A DNA stretch of 64,000 nucleotides from Bryobacterales bacterium (GCA_963422375.2 CAXXKD010000001.1:192001-256000), one strand, 5' to 3'. Positions 1 through 59,405 are shown, counted from the first letter of the stretch. Notes: a model not told the origin generated them from the sequence alone. Made by a program: numbers and translations.

Positions 1-183
1 CCAGCTGTAGCTCGCCGCGCGCTCGCCCTCCGCCGGTCGGCCGTTGCGGCCCACTTCCCGGTAGATCGTGGCCCGCTTGCGGCCCGGCTGCCCGGCGATC
101 CTGTCCGCTCCCTAGCCCGCCGCCCGCAGCGTCTCGATCCGGCAGCGCTCCTCCTGCCTCACGTGCGTGTAGCTCTTCCGCAT
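1..183 (-). pseudogene. IS30-family transposase, N-terminal part with in-frame TAG; runs off the window edge
   Basis: Minus strand from ATG 183 reads MRKSYTHVRQEERCRIETLRAAG*GADRIAGQPGRKRATIYREVGRN, the IS30 N-terminal HTH pattern; TAG at 114-112. Confidence 0.85.
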
Positions 184-282
184 CTGCCTCCCTGCTCCTT
201 CCAGCACCTACCAGCCTACTGCCGCGACACCACCGGTCGCTGGCCCCCCCTCTCCCCTCCCTGCCATCTTGTGGCTCGGCGC

Positions 283-308
283 GTGTCGCACTTCGGAGTT
301 GAATGGGC
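283..308 (-). repeat. IS30-family terminal inverted repeat (left end)
   Basis: GTGTCGCACTTCGGAGTTGAATGGGC resembles typical IS30 ends (..GCACTTxxAxxTTGAAT..), about 100 bp upstream of the transposase ATG and followed by an abrupt AT-rich spacer. Confidence 0.65.
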
Positions 309-444
309 GATATACTTTTAATTAAATCACATAATATAACAATATACTAGAATTGAAATGGGAATTATATATCTGAGTGCCGAGGGAATCAAGTCGGCAA
401 ATTATCAATCCATTATAAGATTTCATATTTCTCCCGAATTTCCG

Positions 445-474
445 TTGACATTCTGTGGTGTTTCTTGGTAGAAT
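445..474 (+). promoter_or_regulatory. Sigma70-type promoter of the IS1595 transposase
   Basis: TTGACA (445-450), 18 nt, TAGAAT (469-474) with TGn extension; AGGGG-type RBS before ATG 498. Copy 2 has TTGAAA at the -35. Confidence 0.6.
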
Positions 475-497
475 AGTTCCAGTAGGGGATACCATAA

Positions 498-1403
498 ATG
501 AAGAAATCAGGTCCCGGAAAGTGGTTCCGTAAAGGCATCACATTGATCGAAGTGATCGCCATGTTCCCCGATGACGAATCCGCGGAAAAATGGTTCGCCT
601 CCATGCGCTGGCCCGACGGTCCGGTATGCCCCCACTGCCGCGGCTCCAGCGTGCAGTCCGACGCGGCCCACCCTTCGATGCCGTACCGTTGCCGCGGCTG
701 CGGGAAGCGCTTTTCGGTGCGCACCGGCAGCGTGATGGCCGACACCGAGCTCGGCTACCGCACCCGGGCCGTGGCCCTGTTCCTGCTGACCACCGGCATC
801 AAGGGCGTCTCGAGCATGAAGCTGCACCGCGACCTAGGCATCAGCCGGAAGTCGGCCTGGCACCTGGCGCACCGCATCCGCGCGTGCCGGGAGCGGGATC
901 GGGGCCTGTTCGCCGGCCCGGTGGAGGTGGACGAGACCTACGTCGGCGGCAAGGAACGCAACAAGCACGAGAGGAAGAAGGCCCGCGCCACGAACGCAGT
1001 GGCCGCGCGGCCGCTGCCGGGCACCGCCAAGGGCGACCTGCAGGGCTTCGTGCGCGGCCGGGTCGCGCCGGGGGCGCAGCTCTACTCCGACGAGGCGGCG
1101 GCCTACGCCGGCATGGCGGAGTTCGCGCACGAAGCCGTCAGGCACTCCGGCGGCGAGTACGTGCGCGGGGCAGCGCATGCGAACGGCATCGAGTCGTTTT
1201 GGTCCCTGTTCAAGCGCGGCCTGTACGGCACCTATCACCGGATGAGCGTCCGTCATCTCGGCCGCTACCTCACGGAGTTCGCGGGACGGTACAACGACCG
1301 CGACTGCGACACGGCGGAACGGATGCGGCGCATGGCGCGGGGCCTGGTCGGCCGGACGCTGACCTGCCGGCAGCTGACCGGCAAGGCCGCGGTCGCGGCC
1401 TGA
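498..1403 (+). CDS. IS1595-family transposase with a 51-nt in-frame deletion, probably inactive
   Basis: Zn ribbon CPHC..YRCRGC, VEVDETY, YSDE, NGIESFWSLFKR, YLTEF; lacks GRGPVGKTPVAGARDRA present in copy 2. Confidence 0.9.
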   Translation: MKKSGPGKWFRKGITLIEVIAMFPDDESAEKWFASMRWPDGPVCPHCRGSSVQSDAAHPSMPYRCRGCGKRFSVRTGSVMADTELGYRTRAVALFLLTTGIKGVSSMKLHRDLGISRKSAWHLAHRIRACRERDRGLFAGPVEVDETYVGGKERNKHERKKARATNAVAARPLPGTAKGDLQGFVRGRVAPGAQLYSDEAAAYAGMAEFAHEAVRHSGGEYVRGAAHANGIESFWSLFKRGLYGTYHRMSVRHLGRYLTEFAGRYNDRDCDTAERMRRMARGLVGRTLTCRQLTGKAAVAA

Positions 1404-1506
1404 GCGGCGACCGCCGCGCCAGCCCCTGCAACGCGCCGGCGCGCCGGGCCCGGGCCGGCGCCAGCCGTCCGCGCTGACGACGCACCCGAGCCTGTCCGCC
1501 GAGCAG

Positions 1507-2202
1507 GTGGCGGGCCTGCTGCGCTCGCGCTGGACGCAGGAGAACTTCTTCAAGTACATGCGCAGCGAGTTCGGGCTCGACACCCTGGCCGAGCACGCCC
1601 TGGCGGAGGTCGCTCCGGACACGCGGGTGACCAACCCGCCCTGGCGCGTGGCCGGGAACCTGCGCGAGAAGACCGAGGAGCGTCTCGGCCGGCTGCGCCG
1701 CCGGCTGGCCCGGGAAGAGCATCCCGACAGCGAGCGGGGCCGCCGGCTGCAAGCGCAGCCGGCCGCGGCCGACAGGCTCGAAAAGGGCCTGGCATGGGGC
1801 ATGAGCCACTGCCGGCAGCACGTCCCGGCGGGCGAGCTGGACCCGGAGGACCGCGTGACGGCCCTGCCCGCGCCGCTGCGCCACCTGCTCGAGACCGTGC
1901 GCGTGGCGGCCTGCCGGGCCGAGCCGGCCATGGCGGCCGTGGTCGCGCCCGAGCCGGCCAAGCCCGAGACGGCCCGCGAGCTGCTGCAGGCGCTGTTCCG
2001 CAGCGCGGCCGGCCTGCGCCCGGACCCGGCCGCGGGCACCCTCGCCGTGAGCCTGCTGCACCAATCCAGGCGGGCCCGCGACGAGGCGCTCGGACCGCTG
2101 ACCGCGGATCTCAACCGCGCCCGGGCGGCGTTCCCCGGCACGGACCTGCGCTTGTCCTACGAAATCCTGCCGGCCGCTCCGACGCGCCCGGCGGGGGCCT
2201 AG
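1507..2202 (+). pseudogene. C-terminal fragment of a DDE-type (IS4-like) transposase
   Basis: RSRWTQENFFKYMRSEFGLD resembles the RWxxENxF catalytic-Glu motif; no N-terminus; abuts the truncated IS1595. Confidence 0.7.
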
Positions 2203-3287
2203 CGCGGCTCCTCAGGCGGAGCGCTGGAAGCGCGGGCCTCCCCGGCGGCCCGGCCGGGTCCCGAGCCAGCCGCGACCAACCGCGGCGGGTTCCGCGCGGA
2301 GCACCCGCGGTCGCCGCCGACGACGGCCTTCCCCGGAGGTGACCGGACCGCTCCCGGTACCCGTCCCCGCCGGCTGGCCGGCGCAGTTACCGGTGACACC
2401 GCTCTCCCGCTCGAGGTACCAAGGCCCCGATCCATGCCTCCGCGGCTGCTCGCCCCAAGGCCGTCCGCGAGTCCCTGCGGCCAGCCCATCGCCCCGGCCA
2501 CACCGTCCCGCTCCCCTCCGACGCGAGACTCTTGGACAACCCAAAACTGCCTATGTTCGGAACTCTGTGCCTGCCGTGTCATAGGGCTCCGTCCTCTCCG
2601 TCTCCGTTCCCACGCTTCACGGATCACCGGAGTAGATCGCGGAAATAGCGCAGGTCAATTTATTGATCGATGACCGTACTTCTCCATGAATGATCGGTCT
2701 CAATTGACAATCCTTGACCAAGAGCTGTGGAGAGAAATCGACATAGGGATGGAGCATGAGGGCGGATTACGAGAAAGCCAAGCTCTCGAGGATGCCCGCA
2801 AGAGCCGTGCAAAGCCTCTAGATTGCCCGCGTGGAAACCGCCACGCAGGGAATCGAGCTTGACCCCCGTCCCAGAATCTTCGTCCCGGCTGCCCCGGGAG
2901 GAATCCAGTCGAGCGACTGCGAGACCGAGTTGCACGAGAGGCTCTTCGGTCTGCCTGCGAGCCGCATCCGAGACCGTGCGCAGCCGCGCGAGGAGGCACG
3001 ACGCCGCCGAGGAATCGGACGTCGCCGAGATCGCTTCTTCACCGGCCGTCCGGGGATGTGCCGTCGGTCCGCTCTCATTCCGGGCCTGCTCGCGTCGCGC
3101 GTGAACGGAGACTGCGACCGGCTGACAATGCTGGCGAAGCCCGTGCGTCCAGCAAGAGCCAGCATACGATACTAATGGATCTCGGTCGCCCACCGCGCCG
3201 TTCGTCGACGCGGTGCTTTCAGGCTTGCCGCCGCGGGCCGTAGGCGGCGCCCAGTTCCCTCCTCGCCCCGGTACCCGCAATCCGCTC

Positions 3288-12506: not shown

Positions 12507-12520
12507 CCGCGCCGCGCGGG

Positions 12521-25804: not shown

Positions 25805-27095
25805 CTAGCTGATCTTCGACAGTTTGAAATTGTAAGTATTGGTGCTTCAACAACTTAGGAGCTGCAGCAGGGGCGAATTAGCACCACGCCGGTGACCGCC
25901 GGGTGCCATCGCACGGGGTTTGTGGTCAGCTTGGTCCCTTCAGACGACCGGGATGCCCCGCCTCCATTCAGACGGCCAGGTCGCTGCCCTCTTCCCGGCG
26001 CAGTATCGGCGGCAGGCGCGCTCCCACGCAGCTCAGCGCCCGCTTCACCGCCTCGCTCGCCTCCGTGCGCAACCATCATCTCCTGCAACCGCGCCAAGCC
26101 CCGTATTAGGTCCGCCCATTCCACCGCCGCGCCGACCTCCCGCAGGCGCCGCTGCAGGTCCTGCCTCAGCACCAAGGCCAGGAACGAGCGGAACACGTGC
26201 CCCCGAATCGCCTCGTCCGTGCGGTGGAACACCGGGCGCGTGCGCAGCAGCGACTTCGACTCGCGGAAGCAGCGCTCTACGCGCCACAGCTCCTTGTACT
26301 TCAAGGCCGCCTCGGTGGCTCCTAGCGGGGCCTTGACGCGCAGCGCCCACACCCCGTCGAAGCGCTCCTCGTCGGCGATGCGGTCCTCGTCGATGCGGAA
26401 GCCCCGGCCCCCCTCGCCCTCGTCCTCGGCCGGATAGCGCCGGAAGCCGCGATTCCCCGCCAAGCGCTTGGCGCCGGCGCCGAGACGCTCGCGCAGCTTC
26501 GCCACGGTCTCCTCGCGCACCGCGCGATCGCGACGCGCCTGTCGCTCGTTGCGACACACCACGTAGCGCCGCCCGGCGGGCCCTGATCATCCCGCACCGC
26601 CACTTCCCGCACCGGCCCGCCCAGCCAGGCCATCGCGCGGTACAGGTGCTGCAGTTCCAGCGCGGAGGCCCCCGCGACGGCTTGGTCGGCCTTCCAGTCG
26701 ATGGCGCTGCGGTCGGAGCCCGGAGCGAGCAGGCGGTGCAGGACCGCGAGGAACACGGCGCGCTCGGCATCGAAGCGGAAGCGGCGACCGCGCAGGGCCG
26801 CGCGCAGGGCCCCCTGGCAGCCGGTGAGTTGCCACACGCGCTCGAAGACGAGCGCGGGGCCGGTCACGCGGCAGGGGAGGCCCTCGGCCGGCGTCTCGCG
26901 CTCGGCCAGCACCGCGGCGTGGCGCGAGAGGCGCGCCCCGGACACGAGCAGGCGGTCGAGCGCGCCGCTGTCCCGGAGCCGGTCGAGTCGCCCGAGAGAG
27001 GCGAGGATCTTCCGGCGCACCTTGGAGCCGTCGCGGGAGTTCTCGACGAGCTGCACGTAGGTGTGGTTGCCGACCTTCTTGGATCGCAGGAACAT
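25805..27095 (-). mobile_element. IS1634-family remnant: transposase pseudogene with large internal deletion and frameshift
   Basis: MFLRSKKVGNHTYVQLVEN..LGRLD, HLYRAMAWLG, then directly ..YVVCRN, YKELWRVERCFR..K..LRTRP..IRGHV; central DDE region absent; putative end CTAGCTGATCTTCGACAG at 25805. Confidence 0.85.
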
Positions 27096-27224
27096 CGCCC
27101 TCAATCGCAGCACTACGGAAAGCGACCGGTCAAGCCCGTGTTCGTGATTCCTCCGAAGGTGCCGGGAACTCCTGCGGGTGCCCGGCCGGACAACTGCATG
27201 AGGTAGTAACTTGCTCGGATAGTT

Positions 27225-27752
27225 CTATATCCAGGACGGCACCGCGAGATCACGGCTTCCTCCGGCGCACTCGGAAAACGGGCCGCTTCCTAGCACGGGA
27301 TGGCGATCGAAGTCATTCCGTGGCACTACATTAACTTCGCCGCGGGCAGGATCCGGCCCGCAAGCCGTCGGGATCCGTCTAGGATGCATACGGATATTAC
27401 CACAATATATGGGACTACTCGGAAGAGACACCACGTCATCTAGACATCGGAGTCGGTGAAGCTCATCTTGCGGGGCGCGCCGGCGTCGGGCCGCGGCTCG
27501 TCGTCCTCGCCAAACTGTTCGTCGTACAATCCCAGGTCGGGCTCCTCTGTCTCGCTTCGTCGCGCAGGGCGACGGCCGGACGATGTGGTAGTGGTTATAG
27601 CCGAGGCCAGTGCCCGGAATGCCGGCCGAGGCCCGCGCTCCTCGCGGGCCGATCGTCAGACCCGCACCCCGAACGCCGGCCGTCAAGGACGGCCCCGACT
27701 TGCTGAGGTTCACCGTGAGACCCGGCACGATCGGAATTCTCCGAAAGAAGCT
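27225..27752 (-). pseudogene. DUF4236-domain protein remnant
   Basis: SFFRRIPIVPGLTVNLSKSGPSLTAGVRGAGLTIGPRGARASAGIPGTGLGY; native start replaced by an IS-end sequence; C-terminus looks degenerate. Confidence 0.7.
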
Positions 27753-27897
27753 CAGCCGCCAATCGCGAAGATTTCCACGCTCTACCCAGAATTGGCAGGA
27801 TTTCGGACTAGTCGTAGCATTCCAGTGAAATCTTCGCCTTGAGAGATTGGACCTAACGTCCTTGTTGTCAAAGGGATACGAGTTTTGTCACAGGCAC
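27750..27897 (-). mobile_element. Partial MITE / ISNCY left-end fragment
   Basis: Reverse complement of about 58097-58245; terminal GTGCCTGTGACAAAACTC flanked by TATATA (27898-27903). Confidence 0.85.
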
Positions 27898-28119
27898 TAT
27901 ATAGGGCGGTGGAAGTCGCGATGCCCGCGGGGTCACTTCTGGTCCCGAGACAGCGGCGACGGAACATGACGTGGGTACCGGGATGCACCCAAGCGGGGGA
28001 ATCGCGCGCCCGGAGCGGGTCGGGCGGCCCTCGAGAGAAACCTCGAGATGCCGCTGTAGTCGGTCCCGCGCGAAGGAGGAGGCGGAGTGCCGTCGGGCCT
28101 GTGACCTTCGGTTCGACTT

Positions 28120-31234: not shown

Positions 31235-31539
31235 TCAGGCCGCTGCGGCCTTCCCGGTCAGCTGCCGGTACGTATGGATCTTGGCGAACAGGCCCCGAGC
31301 CATGCGGCGCATCTGCTCCGCGCTGTCGCAGTCACGGGCTTTGCGACGCCCCGCGAACTCGGTCACGTAGCGGTGCAGCTGCCGGGCGCTCATGCAGTGA
31401 TGCGTCTCGTAGAGGCCGCGCTTGAACAGGGGCCGGAAAGACTCCACGCTAGTGCCGGGCGCGGACCCGCGCACCTACTCGCCGTCCGAGTGCTTGACCG
31501 CCTCGCGGTCGAACTTCTCCGTGCCGGCGTAGAATTCCC
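31235..31539 (-). pseudogene. IS1595 transposase 3' fragment (third, diverged copy)
   Basis: ..EAVKHSDGE*VRG..VESFRPLFKRGLY..RYVTEFAGR..RQLTGKAAAA, homologous to about 1103-1403. Confidence 0.88.
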
Positions 31540-31983
31540 TTACGCTTCACCCTCTATTTTCTTCCGCAGGCACGCGAAGAACTTGTCCGTGATCATCTTG
31601 GCCGTGCCAACCAGCAGCCGCTGGCCCACGCGCGCGACCGGGCCGCCGACCTGCGCCTTGGCCCGCACGGCGACCGAACTGGACGAGTCGCACTCGCTGA
31701 TCGAGATGCGCGCCTCCCCTCTGGCGAAGCCGGCGGTCCCCTTGCCGGCCACTCGCAACGTGAAGGAAGCCGGGCGGTTCAGGTCGTGCAATTCGACGGT
31801 GCCCCGGAAGCGCCCCTTGATGGCTGCGACGCCGAGCGTCATCTCGGCTTGGTAGCAGTTCTCTCCGAGCGGTTCGAGCTCGTCGCAGCCGGGCAGGCAG
31901 CTGGCTACCGTCTGCGGGTCCGTCAATGCGTCGAACACCTCCCTAGGCTCGGCCGCGAAGCGGTACGCACTCTTGAAATCCAT
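31540..31983 (-). CDS. coxG: CoxG (SRPBCC) protein
   Basis: VFDALTDP..CLPGC..GVAAIKG..VGG..ARVGQRL..FF. Confidence 0.9.
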   Translation of the reverse strand: MDFKSAYRFAAEPREVFDALTDPQTVASCLPGCDELEPLGENCYQAEMTLGVAAIKGRFRGTVELHDLNRPASFTLRVAGKGTAGFARGEARISISECDSSSSVAVRAKAQVGGPVARVGQRLLVGTAKMITDKFFACLRKKIEGEA

Positions 31984-32004
31984 GAGACGGGATACTCCGC
32001 AAGG

Positions 32005-34133: not shown

Positions 34134-34149
34134 GTGCGGAGCCGGGCGA

Positions 34150-35019: not shown

Positions 35020-35022
35020 GGC

Positions 35023-40393: not shown

Positions 40394-40612
40394 CAACAGT
40401 ATCCCGTTTAGATATCGTGCCGCGGCATGCCGACGTAGGGAGTCTCGACCGGTTCGGTGAGTCGGCGGGCAGCCTCTGCCTGTGACGCCTGCGGAGGCGT
40501 GACCGACTCTTCAAGCCCGGCCTTGGATGGCTGGCAGGTCCCGCGTGCAGTTTCGACGCGGCGCGGATGGAATCGGTTCACTGGCCTCGACCTTCCTAGC
40601 GCAAATTCACTA

Positions 40613-42482
40613 GTGCTTGTGACAGAACGCGCAAGCCCTTAGTTTCCGGGAGGTTGCAGCAGGTCCGTGGGACGAAGATCGGGGCGATCCGGGACGGCTT
40701 GCGCGTTTCCGGGGGTTGTGCGACAATCTTCGTTGAGGAACCGCCCGTGAGGACCGTTCAGGAGATCCAGCTCACCCTTGGCCGGACTGCAATCGAGGAT
40801 ATCGATCTCGACGTCCGTTCCCGCGACGATATCCCGGCCATCTTGCTAGGAATACAATTCATCTATCGCACCGAGGAGTTGCGGGACAGGGTTTTCGCAC
40901 TGCTCGAGAGCCGTATCCTCGGCCTCGGCGAGAGTAGCGGGAACGGCGGGAACGGCGAGAACGGAAGCGATCCTTCCGCAGGCGAGTCCGGTAAGATCAA
41001 CCCTGCCGTCGGTCGTCCCGGCATGCAGCTGTGGAACATTCTCGTCCCGGGCCTGCTCAAGCAGGGATTGAATTGCGACTGCGACCGCGTGACGGAGCTG
41101 GCGAACAAGCATGCGGACGTCCGGCGCTTCCTCGGTCTGAACGCGACGCTCGACGAGCAGGTCTTCAGCTACCGGACAGTCAACCGGAATCCGAAGCTTC
41201 TCACGCCCGACCTCCTCGCGGAAATCAATCAGCTGGTCGTGCAGGAAGGGCACGCGCTGGCGGGGTGCGAGGAAGGTGATTCGCTGAAGGCGCGGCGCGA
41301 CTCGTTCGTGGTGGAAACGAACGTGCACTACCCGACGGACGTGAGTCTTCTATGGGACGCGTTGCGCTGCCTGATTCGCACTATTGCGCCACTGTGCAAG
41401 GGGCGCGGTATCGCGGGCTGGCGGCAGAGCGCGCGGCTGCTGAAGACGCTGAAGCAGGAATTCAACCGGGTGCGGCAGGCGAAGAGGAGGCAAGCCAACC
41501 CGGAGAGGGTGCGGTCGTACCTGGAGGCGGCCCTGGAGATAGCGCGGCGGGCGGAGGGTGCGCTGGCGGCCCTGGCGCGGGCCGGGGAAGACCAGGGAAC
41601 CTTGCGAGCGGCAAGGAGTTACCTCGGGTGCGTGCAGCTCCTGGCGGACCCGGTGGAGCGGCGCGTGCTGCGGGGGGAGAAGATCCCGCACGAGGAGAAA
41701 GTGTTCTCGATCTTCGAGGAACACACGCGCTGGTGCGTGAAAGGAAAAGCGGGGGTGCCGGTGGAGCCGGGCGTTCCGGTATGCATCGTGGAAAGCGAGC
41801 ACCGATTCGTGATGAATCACGAAGTGATGTGGAAGGGGAGCGACGCGGACGTAGCGGTGGGAATCGTCGAGGGGGCGCAGGGGCTGTACGCGGGGTTGTC
41901 GAGCTGCAGCTTCGACAAGGACTTTCACAGCCCGGCGAACCGGACGCGCTTGGCGGAACTGCTGTCGTGCAACGCGATGCGGCGGAAGGGGAGGCTGTCG
42001 AAGGCGGCGAAGGCGACGGAAGGCGCGCCCGAATTCGTGGCTGCGAGGCAGGCGCACCCGGCCGTGGAGTCCGCGATCAACAATCTCGAGTGCCGCGGTC
42101 TGGACAGGGTGATGGACCGGGGAGCGGAGGGATTCGAGCGGATGATCGGGCTAGCGGTCCTGGCGGCGAACGTGCATCGAGTGGGCCGGATCGTGCGCGA
42201 CAGAGAGCGGGACAGAGAGAGGGAGCGTCTCAAGACGGGACCCTTGCCGCTGGCTGCATAGGCAGTCGGCAGCGATCTGAATTGCCCTGAATTGAAACCT
42301 TGAAGAGACAAGGTTCAGGAAAAGTGTACAACTAGAACAGAACTAACTGTATCCTCACAATGAAAATGGAATATGAGGCAATGAGTTCGGGTAATTGGCG
42401 CAGCCTGTTTCTTCTATAGCTATCATTTGGTCGGGATCTATCAGCTAGAATTCCCAAAATATCAGGGTTTTGTCACAAGTAC
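40613..42482 (+). mobile_element. Complete ISNCY-type insertion sequence (1870 bp) with 6-bp TSD
   Basis: Ends GTGCTTGTGACAGAAC / GTTTTGTCACAAGTAC; TCACTA directly repeated at 40607-40612 and 42483-42488. Confidence 0.92.
40747..42261 (+). CDS. ISNCY-family DDE transposase (open frame, several likely deleterious substitutions)
   Basis: SRDDIP..L.GIQ, GRPGM, DSFVVETNVHYPTD, EKVFSIFE.HTRW..KGKAG, SFDK, AVESAINNLE..GLDR. Confidence 0.9.
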   Translation: MRTVQEIQLTLGRTAIEDIDLDVRSRDDIPAILLGIQFIYRTEELRDRVFALLESRILGLGESSGNGGNGENGSDPSAGESGKINPAVGRPGMQLWNILVPGLLKQGLNCDCDRVTELANKHADVRRFLGLNATLDEQVFSYRTVNRNPKLLTPDLLAEINQLVVQEGHALAGCEEGDSLKARRDSFVVETNVHYPTDVSLLWDALRCLIRTIAPLCKGRGIAGWRQSARLLKTLKQEFNRVRQAKRRQANPERVRSYLEAALEIARRAEGALAALARAGEDQGTLRAARSYLGCVQLLADPVERRVLRGEKIPHEEKVFSIFEEHTRWCVKGKAGVPVEPGVPVCIVESEHRFVMNHEVMWKGSDADVAVGIVEGAQGLYAGLSSCSFDKDFHSPANRTRLAELLSCNAMRRKGRLSKAAKATEGAPEFVAARQAHPAVESAINNLECRGLDRVMDRGAEGFERMIGLAVLAANVHRVGRIVRDRERDRERERLKTGPLPLAA

Positions 42483-43101
42483 TCACTAGTCATTCGAGCG
42501 TCGCGTGGCGCACGCCGAGAATCCGCGCCGCCTCCGCCACGGTAAGGCCGAAGTCCTCGATCACTGCGATATGGATGAAAATTCCGGGTGCGACGGGGTC
42601 ATCCCGATCTTGATGCCGCCCGTGCTGATCGGTGATAGTCGACTAGGTTCAATCGCTCGATCCAGCCGTCCCGTTCCTCCAACGTGATCGCTCCATCCGG
42701 TCGCCGCCTCCCTGACGAAGCCCTCCATGCTCTCGGCCATGGCCAGCGCCGCCACCCTGCCGCGCACCCTTTCCGCTAGATCCTATTTCAGCAACCGGGT
42801 CGAGTCCGTCTCGACAAGCTGGCGCAGGCCCCGGTGACTTCGCCTTGGCGCGCAGGCGCAGCCAAGCCGCCCGGCCTGGCTGCTGTTTCCGCGGTACCGA
42901 GCGGCAGCTTCCGGATCACGAATCGGGCGATGACCCGCCGGATTGAAGTTCAACACCGCTGGCACCGGCACCTGCGCTGCCAGCTCGCCTGGCCTGCCCG
43001 GTGGCGTCGCGGGGAAGGCCCTACGAGCCTAGGGCCCCCGGCCGCTATTCCGCATCGGCTTGTCCCCCTGCTGGACGGCACGACAGCCGCTCGGTGATCC
43101 G

Positions 43102-43581: not shown

Positions 43582-43907
43582 TGCTCGTCCTCGTCATCGG
43601 CAAAGGGGACCTCGCGGTTCGGATTGTCCGTGCGACTGGGCAGCTCCAGCGGGCCGAGGCCGCGCATGTTCTCGACGATCCATCGCCCGAGAGGCATCTC
43701 CGGTTCATCGGGGCGGGGTCGGCGCGCGGAGACATCGCACTTGTCCCACACTTCAGCGGGGACTACGATGAATTGTTTCCGCACCCCGATGCGCTGGGGC
43801 CCCTCTTCGTCGACGAGCCTCAGGATCTCGGACAGGCGCGCCTTCGCTTCGGCGATCGTCCACAGCCGTTCGCCTTCCAAGATGCTTCCGCTTGGGTTCT
43901 GTCGCAT
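43563..43907 (-). CDS. Phd/YefM-family antitoxin
   Basis: WTIAEAKARLSEILR..GPQRI; overlaps the vapC start; exact start uncertain. Confidence 0.85.
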   Translation of the reverse strand: MRQNPSGSILEGERLWTIAEAKARLSEILRLVDEEGPQRIGVRKQFIVVPAEVWDKCDVSARRPRPDEPEMPLGRWIVENMRGLGPLELPSRTDNPNREVPFADDEDEQWSESS

Positions 43908-44101
43908 TCGGCTCGAATAAGTTCTGAGTATACACCGCCCCCTCGGCAGAGATTGGCCGCGGAACGACGGCCGGACGCTCGGTAGCCCGGGCGGATCGCT
44001 CGGACTCCAGCCGGATTCGGCGGAGCGCGTCTCGCTGCGGTTGCAGGCATGCCAGAATTGATCTAGCTCCGCCGACCAGGGCGCTTCCGGCGGAGCGGGC
44101 A

Positions 44102-50732: not shown

Positions 50733-50878
50733 TTTGCCAACAAGGATAGCCGATAGACGTCACTCGGGGCGATCGCTCGGCGGCCAATGCACCGCCGGCC
50801 GCTCGGGCGTGCCCGGTCGGCTCTTCAAGCGTGTCGCTGCGGCAGCGGGCCGGGTTTCGGAGCCGAGGACGGTGCCGG

Positions 50879-51361
50879 CTACCCGTCCCCGCGCTTGCGC
50901 ATCTGCTGCGCTAGGTACAGCCCGAGCCCGGTGTCTTGGATGACTTGCATCTGCGACTCGAGCCAGTCGATGCGGTCCTCTTCCTTGGCCAGGATGCTCT
51001 CGATCAGCTCCCTCGACGCGTCATCGTCCGAGGAGACGCAGACTTCGATGCCGGCGTTGGCGCATTCCGCCGTCTCTTTCGACAGCACGCAGTCGTTGGA
51101 ATGCATGTTGGCCACGTCCGCCCCGATGCGCAGGGCGTAGGTGTCACGCAGGTTCGGTATCGCCTCGAGGAACAGGATCCGGTCGATGAGCTGCTCGGCG
51201 AATACCATGCTGGCGATCGAATCCTTCCGGATTCGCCGCGCGACTTCCTCGTACCCCCAGTCGAGGCACATGCGCGCGTGGAGGAACGACTGATTGATCG
51301 CGGTGAGCTCGAACTTGAGTAGCTGCCGGAGAGAGGCGATGACCTCGGGATGACCCTTCAT
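50879..51361 (-). CDS. bfr: Bacterioferritin-like subunit lacking the ferroxidase centre
   Basis: MKG..ELTAINQ.FLHARM..WG..IDRILFLE..PN..IG..EE..IDWLE.Q; M52 retained. Confidence 0.88.
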   Translation of the reverse strand: MKGHPEVIASLRQLLKFELTAINQSFLHARMCLDWGYEEVARRIRKDSIASMVFAEQLIDRILFLEAIPNLRDTYALRIGADVANMHSNDCVLSKETAECANAGIEVCVSSDDDASRELIESILAKEEDRIDWLESQMQVIQDTGLGLYLAQQMRKRGDG

Positions 51362-51471
51362 GGTTGCGTGAGTCCCCTATGCGCTGGGCGGTCGTGCCGA
51401 CGCGCAGAGGACGCTTGAATCATAGCCGATGGCGCATGGCACGGATTCTGCGCTCCGGATTCCGGATGGCA

Positions 51472-51500
51472 AAGAGAACGGGCGCCCCGAAGGGCGCCCG
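51472..51500 (-). terminator. Intrinsic terminator downstream of the TonB receptor
   Basis: Minus strand CGGGCGCCC-TTCG-GGGCGCCCG followed by TTCTCTTT. Confidence 0.8.
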
Positions 51501-51526
51501 CGGCCACAGCGCGAGGCTCGAGCGCC

Positions 51527-54500
51527 TCAGAAGATCCACTTCAAGCCGAACTGAATCCGCCTTGGCTCGGATGCCGTGGTGATCCTGCCGGCCGCAGGGC
51601 GGCCGATCGAGGTGTTCGGCCGTCCGAATGTCGGGGTGTTCGTGAAATTGAACGCTTCGAAGCGGAACTGGATGTAGTCGCCCTCCCAGGGCAGCGTGAA
51701 CCTGCGCGACAGCGAGAAGTCGATCGCAACGGTCCCCGGGCCCCAGATGAGGTTTCGCCCGGCGTTATCGAGAATGGCGGACTGGCCCGGTCCGATCGCG
51801 TCGGTGTTGAACCAGCGGTCGATTGTCCGCTGTCCCGCCGGCAGGTTGATGACGCCGATGACGTCCCCTCGGTTCGCCCCGCCGACATTGGTCGTGTCTT
51901 GATTGAACGTATGGCTGTCCGGAGTGCCGCCGAGCAGGTTGATGATGCCGCCGACCTGCCAGCCGCCAAGGATCCAAGCCCCCGGGCCCGAGTTCACCAT
52001 GTTCTTGCCGGGGCCGAACGGGAGCTCGTAAATCACGCTCGTCACGTAGGCGACCCGCCGGTCGAGCGAGGCGTTCCCGCGCTCAATCCCTTGGTTGTAG
52101 GTGAAGCGCTGCTGCGAGCTTGTGCCCGTCGTGAGGTTCTCGTTGACCACGTCGATGTTATGCGCCCACGTGAAGGAGCTCAGGAAAGTGAATCCTCCGG
52201 TGAAGCGCTTCTCGGCCTTGACCGTGAGCGAGTTGTAGTTCTGGTTGAGGAAGTTCACTCCTCGCAAGCCGACGGAATTGAAGAAGGGCCTGATCTTGCG
52301 ATCCTGCCATCGGACGGTCGGGTGCGGCGTCAGGGGCCGGTTGATATTGATTGAACCGTGGATTTGGGATGTCGACGACCCGTTGTACCCGACGGTCAGC
52401 AGGGTGTCGCCGGGCAGCTCGCGCTGGAGATCCAAGAACCACTGCGCGGCGTAGAAGCTCGGCCAGACGCCCTCCGTCTTGATGTTGACATTCAACCCAG
52501 CTCGCGGCAGCCCGGCTCTCGTGGAAGGCGGGAATCCGTTTTTCGTCAGGAATGTGCTGATGTCGCGGGGCTGCGCGTTGTCAAACTCGTTCGACTGCGG
52601 CGCCCCGGTGTTGAAGCGCGCAGCTTCTCCCCCGGTGTTGTCGTGCTCGCCGTAGAACATGCCGATTCCCGCGCGGAGCACCGTCTCGTTGTTCGCGCGG
52701 TACGCAATTCCGATCCGCGGGGCGAAGTTGTTGAGGTCGTTCTTGCAAGCGCAGTCGGAGCCGTCCGCTGGAGTCCGGAAGTGGGGTAGGTAGTCCGCCT
52801 CGCCCCAGCCTCCCTGCTTGACGGATATGCGCTCGCCCGGATCCACGGGGCGTCCGTTGACTTCGCCGAGAAAACGCACGACGGTGCTGTTGAGTGTGTG
52901 CGACTGCGGGTCGGGAAACGTGGGCGTGAAAAAGACCTCGTATCGTAGGCCGAGGTTCACTGTCACCTTCGGGGTGAGCTTCCAGTCGTCCTGCACGAAC
53001 ACGCCCCAATACGGGATGACTTGCTCCTCGCCGTTCGGCCAGCCCCACCGGCCGTTTTGGTTCCAACCGAGCAGTCCGTCCGCGAGGCCGTTTCCTGTCG
53101 CACCGCGACTCGCGGCGCTGTTGGGTTCCTCGGTCGTGTAAACCCCGGTGTACTGGAACCGGCCCCTCCGGAATCGGGAGGGGGACCGCGGAATCTGGGT
53201 GCGACGGTATTCCCCTCCGATCTTGATCGTGTGGCTGCCCCTGACCCACGTGAAGTTGTCGGAGATCATCAGATTGTCCATCTTGTTGACATTGGGCCAG
53301 AATGCGCGTGGGCCCACGGACTGAAAGCCCCCCACGAGCGAAAGCGCGTACCCGTGGTTCAAGCCGTCGTCGATCGAATCGCCGGGTGCGCCGAGGACGC
53401 CGAACTTTGCGTTCATGGGTTCCGTGAACGGGATGTCGAAGCGGGTCGGGAAGAATGTGTACCCGAAGCGCAGCTCGTTGAACATGGTCGGGCCAAGCGT
53501 CGAGTGGAGGGCCGAGGCCCAGTTCTGGCTGGGCAGGTCAATCGTCTGACCGTTTCCGCCGTTGGCGGGGAGAGGGAGGTTCCCGTTCTGGAGCACGAAC
53601 TCGTCGCGGATGGAGTAGCGAGCAAACCAGTTGTTGCTGTTGTTGACGTTCCAGTCGAACCGCATGTCGTACTGGTTGTGGTCGATAGTGTCCGCAGGCG
53701 AATGGAAGAAGTTGTTTCTGAGGTTCTCGCGGCCTGGGATGTTCGGAGCGGGGTAGTTGCTCAGCAGCGCCGACGCCACGGGGTCGAAGCGGTCGGACGG
53801 AATCCGGAAGTTTGGAAAGGCCGAGCGCACCCCGTTCTCGATCGTGAGCGGGTCGTAAATCTTGCGGTCTGGGTCAGGCTGCTCGGAGAAGTCGCCGCCC
53901 AGGGCTGCCCGGCTCGGCACCGAGGACGTGAAGCTCTGCCCGGCGCGGTCCTTGGTGCCTTGGAAGCTGAAGAACCCGAACAGCGTGTTCCGCACGATCG
54001 GCCCGCCGAAGGTGCCGCCGTACTGGTTGCGGCGCAGGGTCGGCTTGTCGGCCCCGACCCTGTTCGCAAAGAAATTCGTACCGTCAAGCTTGTCGTTGCG
54101 GAGGAACTCGTACAGGGACCCGTGGAAGTCGTTGGTTCCGGACTTGGTGCTCACGAGGACCTTGGCGCCCATGCGGTAGCCGTACTCGGCCGACATGTTG
54201 TTGGTGACGACCTTGAACTCGCCCACGGCGTCGACGGACGGCTTGGTCGCTTGCGCCTGGAATCCCAACGCACCGCCCGAGTTGCGCGACGAATTGTCCG
54301 CCCCGTCCAGCAGCACGTTGGTTTGCGCGGCGTGCATGCCCACGGCGAGGATGCCGCCCTCGCCCCCGCGCACGCCGTCGTGGCGGGTGCCCTTGCCCAT
54401 TTCGCGGGACGGCAGCACGCCGACGGAGAATTTTGCGAGCTCGAGGTAGTTCCGACCGTTCAGCGGCATCTCGAGGATGCGTTTGGAGTCGATCACTTGC

Positions 54501-54892
54501 CCGACTTCCGTCTTCTCGGACTGGATGAGGATGGCCGCGGCATTGACCTCCACTGTCTCCGTGATCGAGCCCACTGACATCGTGCAGTCGATGCGCATGG
54601 TTTGCTGCACCTCGAGGCGCACCTCGGGATACTCTTGGCTCGAGAAGCCCTCGGAGGAGCAGGTGACCGAGTACAGGCCTTGGTTCAGGCCGGGCACGGT
54701 GTAGTAGCCCACCTCGTTGGTGGACACCGAGCTCTCGACGCCCGTCTCGACGCCCACCACTAGGATCTGTGCTCCGGGTATGACCGCTCCAGTGTCGTCG
54801 GTGACCGTTCCTTGGATCGTCCCGGTCGTCTGGGCGAGCGCCGAGGTCGTCAGCAGCAGGCCCGCTGCGAGCAGGCGAAGCGAATTCTTCAC
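51527..54892 (-). CDS. TonB-dependent receptor with N-terminal carboxypeptidase-regulatory-like domain
   Basis: GTG start and signal; GTIQGTVTD, PLNGRNY, TKSGTN.FHGS, NNFAPRIG, ends QFGLKWIF. Confidence 0.95.
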   Translation of the reverse strand: MKNSLRLLAAGLLLTTSALAQTTGTIQGTVTDDTGAVIPGAQILVVGVETGVESSVSTNEVGYYTVPGLNQGLYSVTCSSEGFSSQEYPEVRLEVQQTMRIDCTMSVGSITETVEVNAAAILIQSEKTEVGQVIDSKRILEMPLNGRNYLELAKFSVGVLPSREMGKGTRHDGVRGGEGGILAVGMHAAQTNVLLDGADNSSRNSGGALGFQAQATKPSVDAVGEFKVVTNNMSAEYGYRMGAKVLVSTKSGTNDFHGSLYEFLRNDKLDGTNFFANRVGADKPTLRRNQYGGTFGGPIVRNTLFGFFSFQGTKDRAGQSFTSSVPSRAALGGDFSEQPDPDRKIYDPLTIENGVRSAFPNFRIPSDRFDPVASALLSNYPAPNIPGRENLRNNFFHSPADTIDHNQYDMRFDWNVNNSNNWFARYSIRDEFVLQNGNLPLPANGGNGQTIDLPSQNWASALHSTLGPTMFNELRFGYTFFPTRFDIPFTEPMNAKFGVLGAPGDSIDDGLNHGYALSLVGGFQSVGPRAFWPNVNKMDNLMISDNFTWVRGSHTIKIGGEYRRTQIPRSPSRFRRGRFQYTGVYTTEEPNSAASRGATGNGLADGLLGWNQNGRWGWPNGEEQVIPYWGVFVQDDWKLTPKVTVNLGLRYEVFFTPTFPDPQSHTLNSTVVRFLGEVNGRPVDPGERISVKQGGWGEADYLPHFRTPADGSDCACKNDLNNFAPRIGIAYRANNETVLRAGIGMFYGEHDNTGGEAARFNTGAPQSNEFDNAQPRDISTFLTKNGFPPSTRAGLPRAGLNVNIKTEGVWPSFYAAQWFLDLQRELPGDTLLTVGYNGSSTSQIHGSININRPLTPHPTVRWQDRKIRPFFNSVGLRGVNFLNQNYNSLTVKAEKRFTGGFTFLSSFTWAHNIDVVNENLTTGTSSQQRFTYNQGIERGNASLDRRVAYVTSVIYELPFGPGKNMVNSGPGAWILGGWQVGGIINLLGGTPDSHTFNQDTTNVGGANRGDVIGVINLPAGQRTIDRWFNTDAIGPGQSAILDNAGRNLIWGPGTVAIDFSLSRRFTLPWEGDYIQFRFEAFNFTNTPTFGRPNTSIGRPAAGRITTASEPRRIQFGLKWIF

Positions 54893-55418
54893 GTGTGAAT
54901 TCCCCCTCAATCTGATGCGGGCGCGGCCCCCACGGCCCAAGTCCCCGCATGGCCCGACATTGTACCACCTCGTGTCGGGAAGCGCCTGCGCCGCCTTGGA
55001 AGCCACTCGGCGGAGAGCCCCACAGCCGGGTGCGTCGGCGCCGCGACCCGGCCGGTGTCTGGCTGGGCGTGGCGCGGCCGCGACGCAGACGGACATCCTG
55101 CTGGTCTGCTGCCGCTTGCTCCAACCGGCTTCGCAGCGCTCGACGTTGGAGTGTCCGGTACTGTCGTGGTCGGCACCCGTGACGGAATCGCCGGAAGGCT
55201 ATCGCGGGTGCTGCCAGCCTCCCACCCGGCCCGTTGCCGACCCCTGAGATAATTTCCCAAGAAGTTAGGGACTTGGTACGCTGAGCTCCGCACGACCCGG
55301 CGCGTGAGGGCGTGAAGCGACTGGGCGAGCTGCCCTCGATCGGCGGCGCCGCAGGCGCTAGCGGGGCCCCCCTCTTGGTCGGAGAATCGGACTCGGCATA
55401 GCCGAGTTGGCCGGCAAG

Positions 55419-56327
55419 CTACGGCCAGTCAGTGCCCTGTAGGCGTCGGCGAATCGGATCGTAGGGATCGCTAGGGCCCTTGGAGGGATCCACGAAGCGC
55501 GCTAGGTCGCGCATGGCGACCACTGTACAGCCTTGTTCTTTCAGGTATTCCAAGTAACGGACGAAGTCGCCAGGCTCCGTGTGAACCCAAGGGTGCTCCG
55601 CGGCCGGCACGCCGTGAAACGTCAGGACGGCGATCTTGCCGTCCCGCGCCTGCTGGATCGCCCACACAAGGTCGTCGAAAGACCATTCCGGCCCGGCATA
55701 GCCGGTTGTCGGGATGAGGAGGGGGTGATCCTCGCTCGGATCGTAGGGTCGCCCGCGGGCGCCCTGCCCGCCGTCGGGATGCTCGGGGCTCACGCCCCGC
55801 CGCGCGAAGATGTAGCTCTTCTCGGCCAGGACCTCCACCACGGGCAGGCTGTGGCGCCATCCCGGATAGACAAACGTTGTCGGCCTCGGGATTCCGTGCT
55901 CATCGCAGCGTCGCTCAATGTGCTCGATGTTCGAACGGATTTCCTCTCGCGACAGCTCGGTCATGTTCGGGTGAGAGCCCGTATGGTTGCCTACCTCGAA
56001 GCCGAGCTCGTGCAGTTGCCTAACGTCGTCCCACGATACATAGCGTTCGTTGTTCGCATCCGCTGCGTAGCCGAGTCCTTCGGTGATGTAGAAGGACGCG
56101 CCGAATCCGTACTCCAGCAGCTTTGGCGCGACGACAGAAATATCCGACTTGTTGCCATCGTCGAACGTCAGCACGACCAAGCCATCGGGAATCGGTTCCA
56201 AGGCTCCTTGCGGGGGAGCCTCGCAGGCTGCAATACCCGCCATTAGCGCCGCGACCGGAAGGGCGAGGCTCAACCGCGGCCTCGACGCCCGTCGATTGGC
56301 CGTACACGGCGTGCGCGTGACTGTCAC
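55419..56327 (-). CDS. Polysaccharide deacetylase (CE4/NodB-like) lipoprotein
   Basis: IAAC lipobox; LTFDDG, GNHTGSH, FVYP, LTFHG; start uncertain. Confidence 0.85.
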   Translation of the reverse strand: MTVTRTPCTANRRASRPRLSLALPVAALMAGIAACEAPPQGALEPIPDGLVVLTFDDGNKSDISVVAPKLLEYGFGASFYITEGLGYAADANNERYVSWDDVRQLHELGFEVGNHTGSHPNMTELSREEIRSNIEHIERRCDEHGIPRPTTFVYPGWRHSLPVVEVLAEKSYIFARRGVSPEHPDGGQGARGRPYDPSEDHPLLIPTTGYAGPEWSFDDLVWAIQQARDGKIAVLTFHGVPAAEHPWVHTEPGDFVRYLEYLKEQGCTVVAMRDLARFVDPSKGPSDPYDPIRRRLQGTDWP

Positions 56328-56470
56328 GTGGGCATTGTACTCGGAACTATGCCAGCTGCTGCCTCGCGGCGAAGAGATCACGCAAGTGTTCGACAGGGCA
56401 GTCTGAGGTCGAGGACCGCAGCACGCGGTACATGAACAGGTGAATTGCGTCTGGAAGACGAACCGCCATG

Positions 56471-56512
56471 CCAGTGCCGTCATCCAGTGCCGTCATCCAG
56501 TGCCGTCATCCA
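56471..56512 (+). repeat. Tandem repeat, 3 x 13 bp plus partial copy
   Basis: CCAGTGCCGTCAT three times, then CCA. Confidence 0.95.
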
Positions 56513-56574
56513 ATCGCCAAGCGGAGACACGGTGTTCGGAGTGATGCGCCAGTGCCTGCTCGGGCGCATGTCGC

Positions 56575-58089
56575 GGAATTATATACCTGAGTGCTGAGGG
56601 AATCAAGTCGGCAAATTATCAAGCCATAATTAGATTTCATATTTCTTCCGATTTTCCGTTGAAATTCTGTGGTGTTTCTTGGTAGAATAGTTCCAGTATG
56701 AGATACCGTAAATGAAGAAACAAGTCCCCGGAAAGTGGTTCCGTAAAGGCATCACATTGATCGAAGTGATCGCCATGTTCCCCAATGACGAATCCGCGGA
56801 AAGATGGTTCGCTGCCATGCGCTGGCCGGACGGCCCCGCGTGCCCCCACTGCCGCGGCTCCAGCGTGCAGTCCGGCGCGGCCCACCCTTCGATGCCGTAC
56901 CGTTGCCGCGGCTGCGGCAAGCGCTTTTCGGTGCGCACCGGCAGCGTGACGGCCGACACCAAGCTCGGCTACCGCACCCGGGCCGTCGCCCTGTTCCTGC
57001 CGACCACCGGCCTCAAGGGCGTCTCGAGCATGAAGCTGCACCGCGACCTAGGCGTCAGCCGCAAGTCGGCCTGGCACCTGGCGCACCGCATCCGCGCGTG
57101 CCGGGAGCGGGATCAGGGCCCGTTCGCCGGCCCGGCGGAGGTGGACGAGACCTACGTCGGCGGCAAGGAACGCAACCAGCACGAGAGCAAGAAGGCCCGT
57201 GCCGGGCGCGGGCCCGTCGGCAAGACCCCGGTGGCGGGGGCGCGGGACCGCGCCACGAACGCAGCGGCCGCGCGGCCGCTGCCGGGCACCGCCAAGGGCG
57301 ACCTGCAGGGCTTCGCGCGCGCCCGCGTCGCGCCGGGGGCGCAGGTCTGCTCCGACGAGGCGGCGGCCTGCGCCGGCATGGCGGAGTTCCCGCACGAAGC
57401 CGTCAGGCACTCCGGCGCTCCGGCGGCGAGTACGTGCGCGGGGCAGCGCATGCGAACGGCATCGAATCGTTTTGGTCTCTGTTCAAGCGCGGCCTGTACG
57501 GAACCTATCACCGGATGAGCGTCCTTCATCGCGGCCGCTACCTCACGGAGTTCGCGGGACGGCGCAACGACCGCGACTGCGACACGGCGGAACAGATACG
57601 GCGCATGGCGCGGGGCTTGGTCGGCCGGACGCTGACCTGCCGGCAGCTGACCGGCAAGGCCGCGGTCGCGGCCTGAGCGGCGCCCGCCGCGCTGAGCGCG
57701 GCAGCCCGCTGCGGGCGCGCGCTTCACGCTCGGTACGAGGGGCGCAGCGGATCCGGAATGCCCCGGTGCGACCCCGGTCCGGCCCGGACCGTCCATGCAG
57801 GCCGTCGAGCGCCGGGGATCCGCTGTCTTCGGCCCTCGCAGGGCCTGCAAGCGGCTTGCAAGGGGTGCCCTGCCACCGCCAACCGGGTTCCACCGGGGCA
57901 GGCGAGGCGGCCTCTCTAGTCCCTTCCTCGTCCAATCCGCTGGCAGGCTCGATTCAGATACGATCCCACCCCCCATCCCTCTGTGCCCGCCGCGGCCGCA
58001 CTCGAATGACCCCAGCTCGACACCCACCTCCCTGCTCACAGCAGTTCTAGTCGGACATGGCGTTGTCGGCACTCAGATATATAATTCCC
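56575..58089 (+). mobile_element. IS1595-family element copy 2 with both IRs
   Basis: Left GGAATTATATACCTGAGTGCTGA; right TCGGCACTCAGATATATAATTCCC; no TSD seen. Confidence 0.92.
56712..57676 (+). pseudogene. IS1595 transposase frameshifted by an 8-nt duplication
   Basis: CTCCGGCG duplicated at 57410-57425; C-terminus NGIESFWSLFKR..KAAVAA in another frame. Confidence 0.92.
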
Positions 58090-58096
58090 ATATATA

Positions 58097-58351
58097 GTGC
58101 CCGTGGAAAAACTCGTATCCCCTTGACAAAAAAGGCGTTAGGTCCAATCTCTCAAGGCGAAGATTTCGCTGGAATGCTACGACTAATCCGAAATCCTGGC
58201 GATTCTGGGTAGAGCGCGGAAATCTTCGCGATTGGCGTCTGAGCAACTTCCGACCTTGGGCCCTATATGTTGTGCTTGGAGATCCATCCGACATCAGGAT
58301 GTAGTATGAAATGCTGATCGGGCCAGAATTCGGGGGTTTTGTCACAAGCAC
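58097..58351 (+). mobile_element. 255-bp MITE related to the ISNCY element
   Basis: Ends GTGCCCGTGGAAAAAC / GTTTTGTCACAAGCAC; TATATA TSD at 58091-58096 and 58352-58357. Confidence 0.88.
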
Positions 58352-58365
58352 TATATAATTCCCTT

Positions 58366-59405
58366 CCTAATTACCAACGAAAGTCAGGCGAGGATATGCT
58401 ATACTGGAGGAGGTCGGAAATCTCTGCTAGGAAAGGGGATAGCAGATGAAACGCAATCGCGTGCAATGCCAGAAGGGACTCAGCCTGGGCAAGTTCCTGC
58501 AGCGCTACGGCAGCGAGGGGCCATGCGAGCAGGCCGTCTTCAACGCCCGCTGGCCGGACGGCTTCCGCTGCCCGGAGTGCGGCGCCCGACGGCACTGCCG
58601 CATCCGCTCGCGCAAGCTCTGGCAGTGCCATGCCTGCCACCGCCGGACCTCCCTGGTCGCCGGCACGATCTTCGCCGCCACCCAGCTGCCGCTGACCGTC
58701 CGGTTGCTGGCGATCCACCTGCTGACGCAGGGCCAGCACGGCGTTTCGTCGCTGGAACTGGCGCGGCAGCTGGGGGTCAGCCGGAACACGGCTTGGAAGA
58801 TGAAGCACAAGCTCTTGCAAGTGATGAAGGAGAGCGACGAGCGCGTGCCGCTGGGCGGCATCGTGCAGGTGGACGACGCCTACTGGGGCGGGGAGCGGAC
58901 CGGCGGCAAGCGCGGGCGCGGCGCGCAAGACGCCGTTCGTCGCCGCCGTGCAGGTCGCCGCCGACGGCAAGCCGGCAAGGATGCGCATGAGCAGCGTGGC
59001 CAGTATGGCGGGCTTGCACAAGAAGACGCTGGCAGCATGGGCCGGGCGGCACTTGCAGCCCGGCACGGAGGTGCATTCCGACGGCTTGGCCTGCTTCCGG
59101 GGCGTGGCCGACGCCGGCTGCGAGCACGTGCCGACCGTCACCGCAGGCGGGCAGCGGAGCTGCGGGGATTCCCGCTTCGTCCGGGTCAATTCTTCTGGGT
59201 CAACACGATGCTGGGGAACGTCAAGCAGTCCCTGGCGGGAACCTGCCATGCGCTCGACGGCAAGCACCTGCCGCGCTACCTCGCCGAGTTCTGCTACCGC
59301 TTCAACCGCCCCTACGATCTGCAGGTGCTGGTCCCACGCCTCCGTGCGCACCCCGCCCATGCCTTACCGCCTCCTAACCTTGGCTGAGTCTTGTGGGTAA
59401 TCAGG
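58366..59405 (+). mobile_element. Second IS1595 lineage (ISSod11/ISXo2-like) with frameshifted transposase from ATG 58446
   Basis: Ends CCTAATTACCAACGA / TTGTGGGTAATCAGG; RWPDGFRCPEC, QVDDAY.GGE, then shifted KTPFVAAV..HSDG, back to WVNTMLGNVK..RYLAEFCYRFNR. Confidence 0.9.

Follow-up and report, generated by a model that had tools for sequence, protein, structure and literature searches.

Insertion sequences of a Bryobacterales genome decay towards G:C, possibly through biased short-patch exchange between copies

Does the decay of insertion sequences (IS) in a bacterial genome have a preferred direction of base substitution and, if so, what sets it? The question was raised by a 64,000-nucleotide stretch of a Bryobacterales bacterium (C3:192001-256000, hereafter the window), which carries damaged transposase genes of the IS1595, ISNCY and other families (Table 1). 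The original prediction, made from the window alone, held that these genes had accumulated mostly A:T>G:C changes and tentatively ascribed them to a mismatch-repair-deficient mutator or, more speculatively, to adenine deamination targeted at mobile DNA. In this genome (G000; 6.0 Mb, 67% G+C, three contigs, C1 to C3, 96.4% complete), repeats with at least four matches make up 9.2% of the sequence and 21 families have at least five copies; the IS1595 element of the window has 156 genomic matches, 90 of them about full length. Its closest relatives are found in Bryobacterales metagenome-assembled genome records, alongside taxa whose names hint at sponge hosts, and the habitat may be sponge-associated. 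Copy haplotypes are given throughout as assembled.

The codon differences listed in the original prediction between the two IS1595 copies are all present in the alignment, and the motifs that it read as altered lie in the elements named: ILVPG (41038), CDCD (41074), RRDSF (41293) and VEPG (41761) in the ISNCY element; RRYP (26442), HVFRSF (26199) and FDAER (26774) in the one labelled IS1634; QPGR (90) in the one labelled IS30; and TVRL (58695) and GTCHA (59238) in the one labelled ISSod11-like. Copy 2 carries M80T, L97P, L137P, V142A, V185A, V202A, Y213C, Y220C and Y282R, and profile matches identified in the family both the Zn ribbon and the DDE_Tnp_IS1595 domain. The two-copy comparison alone is weak evidence, because its 45 unpolarised differences in the open reading frame (ORF) comprise 18 transitions in which copy 2 has the G/C, 9 in which copy 1 has it, and 18 transversions. 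The T/C difference reported at the end of a miniature inverted-repeat transposable element (MITE) is likewise present, as a polymorphism of the family (25 T, 26 C and 2 A among 53 matches). Because the majority allele is often a damaged one, majority-consensus polarisation makes the effect look smaller than it is, and outgroup polarisation was used in its place. For IS1595, 79 outside homologues yielded 141 conserved codons, of which 10 without an ancestral codon were dropped, and 98 genome matches were scored. No close intact outgroup was found among 40 relatives (best DNA identity 72% over the element), and the best protein identity in genome and metagenome scans was only 63-65%. A second polarised analysis covered the conserved transposase codons of 104 IS1595 and 13 ISNCY copies at a threshold of at least 10% of copies.

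The polarised spectra bore out the proposed direction, and the GC-ward bias of IS decay is real. In the combined analysis, A:T>G:C changes had reached the threshold at 35/282 sites and G:C>A:T changes at 2/362 (p = 2e-11). In IS1595 alone, changes in at least five copies occupied 23/116 A:T>G:C opportunities (mean frequency 0.086) versus 2/147 in the opposite direction (0.0037); transversions at the same threshold numbered 7/123 versus 3/200. Several damaging alleles are carried by most of the 90 copies (W90R by 78, Q117R by 78, Y213R by 77, Y220C by 59) and others by many (L113P by 46, Y148C by 34, W252R by 34, M80T by 30). The stop codon (consensus position 1106) has changed from TGA to CGA in about one third of the IS1595 copies, giving long read-through products.

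The ISNCY family could be polarised within the genome, against two identical least-damaged copies (C1:1183108-1184622 and C2:255030-256541). Compared with this pair, nine of the ten main damaged copies show 35-62 T>C and 7-17 C>T differences (the tenth, 10 and 17), the window copy having 35 and 17; three divergent copies are richer in C>T. Of 211 A:T>G:C opportunities at residues that homologues support, 15 carry shared and 5 private changes; of 259 G:C>A:T opportunities, none carries a shared change and 5 carry private ones. The least-damaged pair, which sits beside 13 decayed copies and itself carries W203R and Q353R, may represent a recent re-invasion or active helpers. The proposal that other elements decay in the same direction holds for ISNCY; the ISSod11-like family gave no clean skew (11/69 versus 8/99, with distant homologues). 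Owing to those distant homologues this family, with 7 T and 7 C sites changed in at least 50% of copies, was excluded from the 35:2 count; W79R occurs in 74%, L102P in 49% and Y139C in 31% of its copies.

Could assembly or polishing have mixed alleles between repeat copies? At six listed places all the contig depth of sequencing run X2 differs from the window letter, some rare window alleles are missing from the contigs, and the haplotypes are known from the assembly alone. Contigs of X2, which may be the source sample, nevertheless match 5.8 kb of unique window DNA (50800-56616) without a difference, and those of the independent run X1 (2015, a separate study) match three pieces of about 850 bp in all without substitutions and with one 13-base gap. 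Contigs of both runs carry the family alleles at IS1595 copy 2: the L113P allele at 57049 accounts for 51% of depth in X2 (46/90 in the assembly) and 29% in X1. Eleven proteins on other contigs show the same alleles in new combinations, and nine core genes had 10 A:T>G:C and 14 G:C>A:T changes at conserved sites, so a general base-calling error is not the cause. Mixing, moreover, can produce neither a direction nor a bias in single-copy DNA, and we consider such an artefact very improbable.

A milder drift from TpR to CpR (R, purine; Y, pyrimidine) runs through the whole genome and is not specific to IS, as the idea of a lineage-wide GC-ward force had anticipated. In 22 broken host-gene regions, changes affected 11/194 TpR, 8/287 TpY and 15/930 C sites (odds ratio (OR) 3.7, p = 0.002), compared with 1/892 TpR and 28/4118 C sites in 40 intact paralogues. 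Ten lone IS relics gave a similar figure (TpR 33/370 versus C 28/1028, OR 3.5); the one in the window carries H>CGC, W>CGG and Y>CAT, and also Y>TAG. In core genes, the frequency of T at synonymous third positions is 0.025 before G versus 0.135 before C, and the TpG log-odds gap of -1.80 is wider than in any other of the 30 genus genomes (-0.22 to -1.22). This gap remains at matched G+C content of third codon positions (GC3), and G+C content at fourfold degenerate sites (GC4, 0.935) is the top value in the genus, both comparisons resting on heuristic gene sets that include some false ORFs. Six broken AAA-ATPase paralogues had no significant bias (17/314 versus 31/800, p = 0.25), pairs of intact and broken paralogues gave no signal, functional divergence being dominant, and a TonB receptor split by an IS has 7 T>C and 10 C>T non-synonymous differences.

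The pseudogene results largely refute the adenine deamination that had been proposed to target IS. The IS families are altered far more than host genes, as such editing would predict, and the A-strand context is 5'-YA, as with TadA-derived editors. Yet host pseudogenes and synonymous sites have the same context bias, the damaging alleles are shared rather than private, and both strands are equally affected (24/178 versus 22/173 in one analysis, 24/242 versus 29/308 in another). Nor did a search confined to the PF00383 fold recover an unusual deaminase; the three proteins with this fold are ordinary, matching TadA, RibD and a dCMP/dCTP deaminase. Deamination of this kind is hardly credible here. 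Locus L065 (C1:879559-882912) encodes a kinase-deaminase fusion that scores below the cut-off of an anti-phage dCTP deaminase model (129.7 of 400 bits).

The bias depends on how widely a change is shared. Shared changes are split 35:2 between A:T>G:C and G:C>A:T and singletons 32:47 (Fisher p = 6e-9); in IS1595, singletons occur at 24/116 and 30/147 opportunities, respectively, and their share of otherwise invariant sites is the same for TpR (13/46), TpY (14/50) and C (43/153). Even a mutation bias of 3.5-fold at TpR and 1.7-fold at TpY, which predicts a T share of 0.67, is incompatible with either frequency class (p = 6e-5 and 2e-6). A constant bias of the size recorded in pseudogenes therefore fails both classes, which leaves either a fixation bias during exchange between copies or a spectrum that changed over time. 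Regressing class on frequency gave a scaled bias B of 20 (7.7-43) for IS1595 and 4.8 (2.9-7.2) for ISNCY.

The unbiased private changes also bear on the suggested present-day mutator. Deficient mismatch repair would make A:T>G:C transitions more frequent and would also promote recombination between diverged copies. The mutS and mutL frames (878 and 631 codons), however, are both open with recognisable motifs, and MutS has seven changes at conserved sites, including one clear A:T>G:C transition; nucS, the third gene proposed for the search, was not found in the 96% complete genome. The mutS signature of Pseudomonas aeruginosa, as given in the accessible text of PMC11695600, combines a T>C excess in CTN/GTN contexts, GTC included, with equally strong C>T. 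The CTN/GTN excess has a likeness here; C>T is not raised, and neither C>T in NCC/NCG nor T>C in GTC was seen. Present mismatch-repair deficiency thus has very little to recommend it, and the original prediction as a whole is partly supported, its direction standing and its two causes not.

The shared alleles sit in copies that are mosaics of one another. Among 77 main-subfamily copies, linkage between 74 intermediate-frequency sites (r2) fell from 0.44 at 1-5 bp to 0.12 at 6-15 bp and about 0.02-0.03 beyond 60 bp, most of it being lost past ~15 bp, and 84-97% of site pairs more than 5 bp apart showed all four gametes. The decay was alike in families 1, 5, 7 and 11. As read from the assembled haplotypes, this pattern shows sequence exchange between copies in apparent patches of ~5-20 bp. 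Adjacent changes travel together (codon 213 is TAC in 11 copies, CGC in 65, TGC in one and CAC in none; CCA is missing at codon 113), which marks the high-frequency alleles as identical by descent rather than independent hits. Nine pairs of sisters differ at 6-18 of 109 polymorphic sites versus 2-8 sites elsewhere (28 in one pair, with a replaced end). The window's IS1595 copy 1 is itself a mosaic of family alleles, with a 51-nt in-frame deletion and a right part replaced by another element. Two sisters that share this deletion differ from it at 7 and 18 sites polymorphic in the family and at only two others each. Since sisters with common rare markers differ chiefly at family-polymorphic sites, exchange must postdate duplication.

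Each of the 88 near-full copies of subfamilies A and B has five or more of the 28 damaging alleles; private changes, by contrast, average two in the 77 main-subfamily copies, and copies remain ~4.6% apart while accumulating shared damage. Short blocks cross between subfamilies that are 8-10% apart, and 5' ends diverged by ~20% retain long haplotypes; genomic distance had no effect on copy similarity (rho -0.04, p = 0.13). In genomes G008 and G015, the ten best-scoring copies per genome, a choice that favours intact ones, differ among themselves, keep the conserved residues and have an r2 of ~0.3 at all distances. IS1595 matches number from 41 to at least 85 in each of the genomes G021, G046, G008 and G016. 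A second, strongly diverged 5' end (the first 290 bases) occurs on the shared mosaic body of 22/77 main-subfamily IS1595 copies.

Mean derived frequency follows the base 3' of the T: 0.185 at TpA, 0.104 at TpG, 0.027 at TpC and 0.008 at TpT, with no difference between the strands. The hottest contexts in the families are TGG (16/42) and TAG (5/10), TC and TT together giving 5/169. Constant hypermutation of TRG throughout the genome combined with neutral drift could create the skew if hot sites left the singleton class, and TGG is hot in the lone relics too (14/89); homologous residues are changed in unrelated lineages. The rates needed are ~100-fold over background, which would saturate the lone relics, where only 33/370 TpR sites have changed; double-change haplotypes occur without intermediates, and binomial tests reject the model. 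We regard it as improbable.

We favour, at roughly even odds (probability about 0.5), short-patch gene conversion between IS copies that prefers G:C, superimposed on the milder genome-wide TpR>CpR drift. New mutations, about equal in both directions, would arise in single copies and be shuffled by homologous exchange in the short patches described above. T/C or A/G differences in the heteroduplex would be resolved more often to C:G, most at TpG/TpA and TRG, and an A:T>G:C change that first arose in a single copy could then spread through the family despite destroying conserved Trp, Tyr, Leu, Val and Gln residues; G:C>A:T changes would remain private or be erased. The TpR preference is weaker (~3.5-fold) on single-copy neutral DNA, where the footprint is visible and a mutational bias or allelic recombination may be the cause. 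A more specific version, in which context-specific T:G short-patch repair turns ectopic recombination into a ratchet that carries each A:T>G:C lesion of a single copy to all members, and large IS families disable themselves in concert, is offered tentatively.

Several results weigh against this preference for biased conversion. In small clades, conversion events ran 13 W>S (weak to strong pair) to 12 S>W versus 0.60 expected without bias (p = 0.42; two clades, unreliable polarity). Invasion of transition alleles between subfamilies was only mildly asymmetric (0.215 versus 0.125, n = 32; 0.134 versus 0.097, n = 21), and that of transversions at the 5' end was reversed (0.075 versus 0.177, n = 12). 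Three AT-rich MITE or end families lean towards A/T, with ratios of 0.23-0.61. The same residues are altered in unrelated IS1595 lineages, so recurrent mutation also contributes. The skew is much stronger in families than in lone relics, yet the burden per copy is similar in both and thus does not scale simply with copy number. CTAGG and CTTGG, the contexts of Escherichia coli Vsr, are T-rich in host genes (0.31 and 0.44). Finally, vsr is present in 30/31 genus genomes, which leaves unexplained why this lineage stands out.

The alternative that we take most seriously, although we judge it unlikely, is a past mutator episode. High-rate TpR>CpR mutation, for example because deaminated adenine went unrepaired or T:G repair was over-active, would have damaged master copies that were then amplified in trans and shuffled without bias, mutation now being normal. 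Such an episode accounts for the difference between old shared and young private spectra, for the similar burden of lone relics and host pseudogenes and for the synonymous TpG deficit. Thirty ISNCY changes are found in 8-10 of the ten damaged copies, as under common descent; near-intact helpers exist, namely the two identical ISNCY copies and P0279, an almost undamaged IS1595 protein from a different contig; and endonuclease V is absent from all 31 genus genomes searched (31/31). That loss is genus-wide, however, and in G008 and G015 the IS1595 copies with the best scores are nevertheless intact; the genome studied here also has Aag, rdgB and an AlkA-type gene. The episode also needs a per-site spectrum of ~10-20:1, far over the 3.5-fold bias of pseudogenes, and several dead families that each multiplied afterwards. 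Biased conversion is preferred because it needs no such run of dead families and gives B values of 5-20; the past episode keeps weight because the direction tests are mixed and helpers for damaged masters exist.

Under biased conversion, the most plausible agent would be a T:G-specific short-patch enzyme such as the orphan Vsr. An open vsr frame lies at C2:2578401-2578883. It is the sole vsr, and its neighbourhood (C2:2575425-2578883) holds a DinB-like polymerase gene and no adjacent methyltransferase. The genome further encodes two uracil-DNA glycosylases (UDG), one of them family 4/5-like, three HhH-GPD glycosylases including one of MutY size, recA, two dnaE genes and 18 C5-methyltransferase matches. 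According to the available text of PMC2715241 and PMC6116569, Vsr repair resolves T:G to C:G, the direction seen here, Neisseria has a Vsr of broad context, and excess Vsr is mutagenic in E. coli. The hot context in our families differs, being TRG and not the Dcm product CTWGG. Genome-wide, CCWGG is under-represented (0.67), and at synonymous sites CTAGG/CTTGG are rich in T, as if Dcm-type sites decayed unrepaired or were avoided despite vsr. Aberrant repair by human TDG likewise leads to TpG/CpA>CpG mutations, in so far as the accessible part of PMC4041421 describes it, with an equal net change and dinucleotide context; that process is mutational rather than recombinational, and here one UDG is family 4/5-like.

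Known systems share parts of this pattern. In fungal repeat-induced point mutation (RIP), context-biased transitions on both strands inactivate repeats. RIP acts as C>T at CpA, privately in each copy and on repeats only; here the direction is opposite, the changes are shared and single-copy DNA is also affected. Work by Cordaux from 2009, to judge by its title as cited in PMC3205602, reportedly concerns gene conversion between IS copies of Wolbachia wBm that are no longer functional, likewise a case of sequence exchange between dead copies in a host-associated bacterium. That title points to the maintenance of copies and implies no G:C drive; here copies are ~4.6% divergent and share their damage. 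Our literature search, with most subscription papers and supplements outside its scope, found no report of G:C-driven concerted decay or conversion among bacterial IS copies.

The closest framework is GC-biased gene conversion (gBGC), which Lassalle et al. 2015 (PMC4450053) put forward for bacteria. PMC9348620 treats the matter as open, and PMC13548323 and PMC9339322 debate it. These last three sources place high-GC bacteria above their mutational equilibrium and leave the choice between selection and biased conversion unsettled. The decay described here resembles gBGC in an apparent G:C fixation bias that is stronger for commoner alleles, is linked with recombination and takes damaging alleles along; homologues exchange sequence, and W>S frequencies exceed S>W frequencies with unbiased new mutations. 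It differs in acting between dispersed dead IS copies of one genome, not alleles, mainly through transitions with a TpR/TRG preference, in patches of ~5-20 bp and with a per-event direction of 13:12. Concerted GC-ward IS decay provides a rare natural test of the bacterial gBGC idea. Dead IS copies are free of protein selection and the favoured alleles wreck conserved residues; with ~100 recombining copies in one genome, the frequency spectrum can be read directly and the scaled bias estimated; context and patch length point to candidate enzymes; and the approach applies to any IS-rich long-read genome. The ratchet, if true, would amount to direct evidence, from within a single bacterial genome, of mechanistic gBGC at sites where protein selection is opposed or nil, and to a passive brake on transposon load akin to RIP in reverse. 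A past episode, if that were the cause, would have left the record of a strong context-specific mutator with intact repair genes, also unusual.

Table 1. Mobile elements and fragments in the window (positions counted from its first nucleotide; ".", no strand assigned).
Feature	Position	Strand	Details
End of 25-copy repeat (labelled IS30 earlier)	1..314	-	Motif QPGR at 90
IS1595 copy 1	358..1420	+	ORF 498-1403, 301 aa; PF12762/PF12760, NF033547
Low-copy transposase fragment	1405..2570	+	PF21804; abuts IS1595 copy 1
Low-copy decayed transposase (labelled IS1634 earlier, unconfirmed)	25811..27451	-	Motifs RRYP, HVFRSF, FDAER
AT-rich MITE	27742..27906	.	~69 copies; family without G/C-ward skew
Lone IS1595 relic	31250..31597 (C3:223250-223597)	-	One of 10 single-copy controls
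ISNCY element	40610..42488	+	ORF 40654-42261; NF033593, 389.5 bits vs cut-off 325
IS1595 copy 2	56575..58091	+	ORF from 56712; 8-nt duplication causing frameshift; ~100-120 genomic matches along element
MITE-type end with GTGCCCGTG variant	58088..58352	.	T/C site polymorphic in the family
Second IS1595-family element (labelled ISSod11-like earlier)	58353..59406	+	ORF 58446-59387; PF12760/PF12762; 89 near-full copies

No profile match confirms the labels IS1634, IS30 and ISSod11, and the low-copy decayed transposase gave no Pfam match. At window position 56471, just 5' of IS1595 copy 2, 13 bases are absent in run X1 (one contig, depth 3). Elsewhere in the window, a PIN-domain gene and its small upstream partner (43102-44117) probably form a toxin-antitoxin pair, and positions 31540-38249 hold a cluster for a Cox-type molybdopterin dehydrogenase with AAA ATPase, VWA (CoxE-like) and CoxG genes. 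Outside the window, a cassette at C2:2840096-2845222 comprises genes named by resemblance as ImuA-like, ImuB-like and a second dnaE. Three equally scoring copies of a 408-codon C5 methyltransferase are present (L197-L199; C1:1834233, C2:1339756, C3:16926), and several other methyltransferase genes are broken, some through IS insertions. Two related 630-aa genes, one of them split by an IS (L211, C2:110500-116500, and C3:435696-437588), encode proteins that resemble CRISPR-associated CARF proteins. Genome-wide, the hexamer GTGCAC occurs at 0.19 of expectation.

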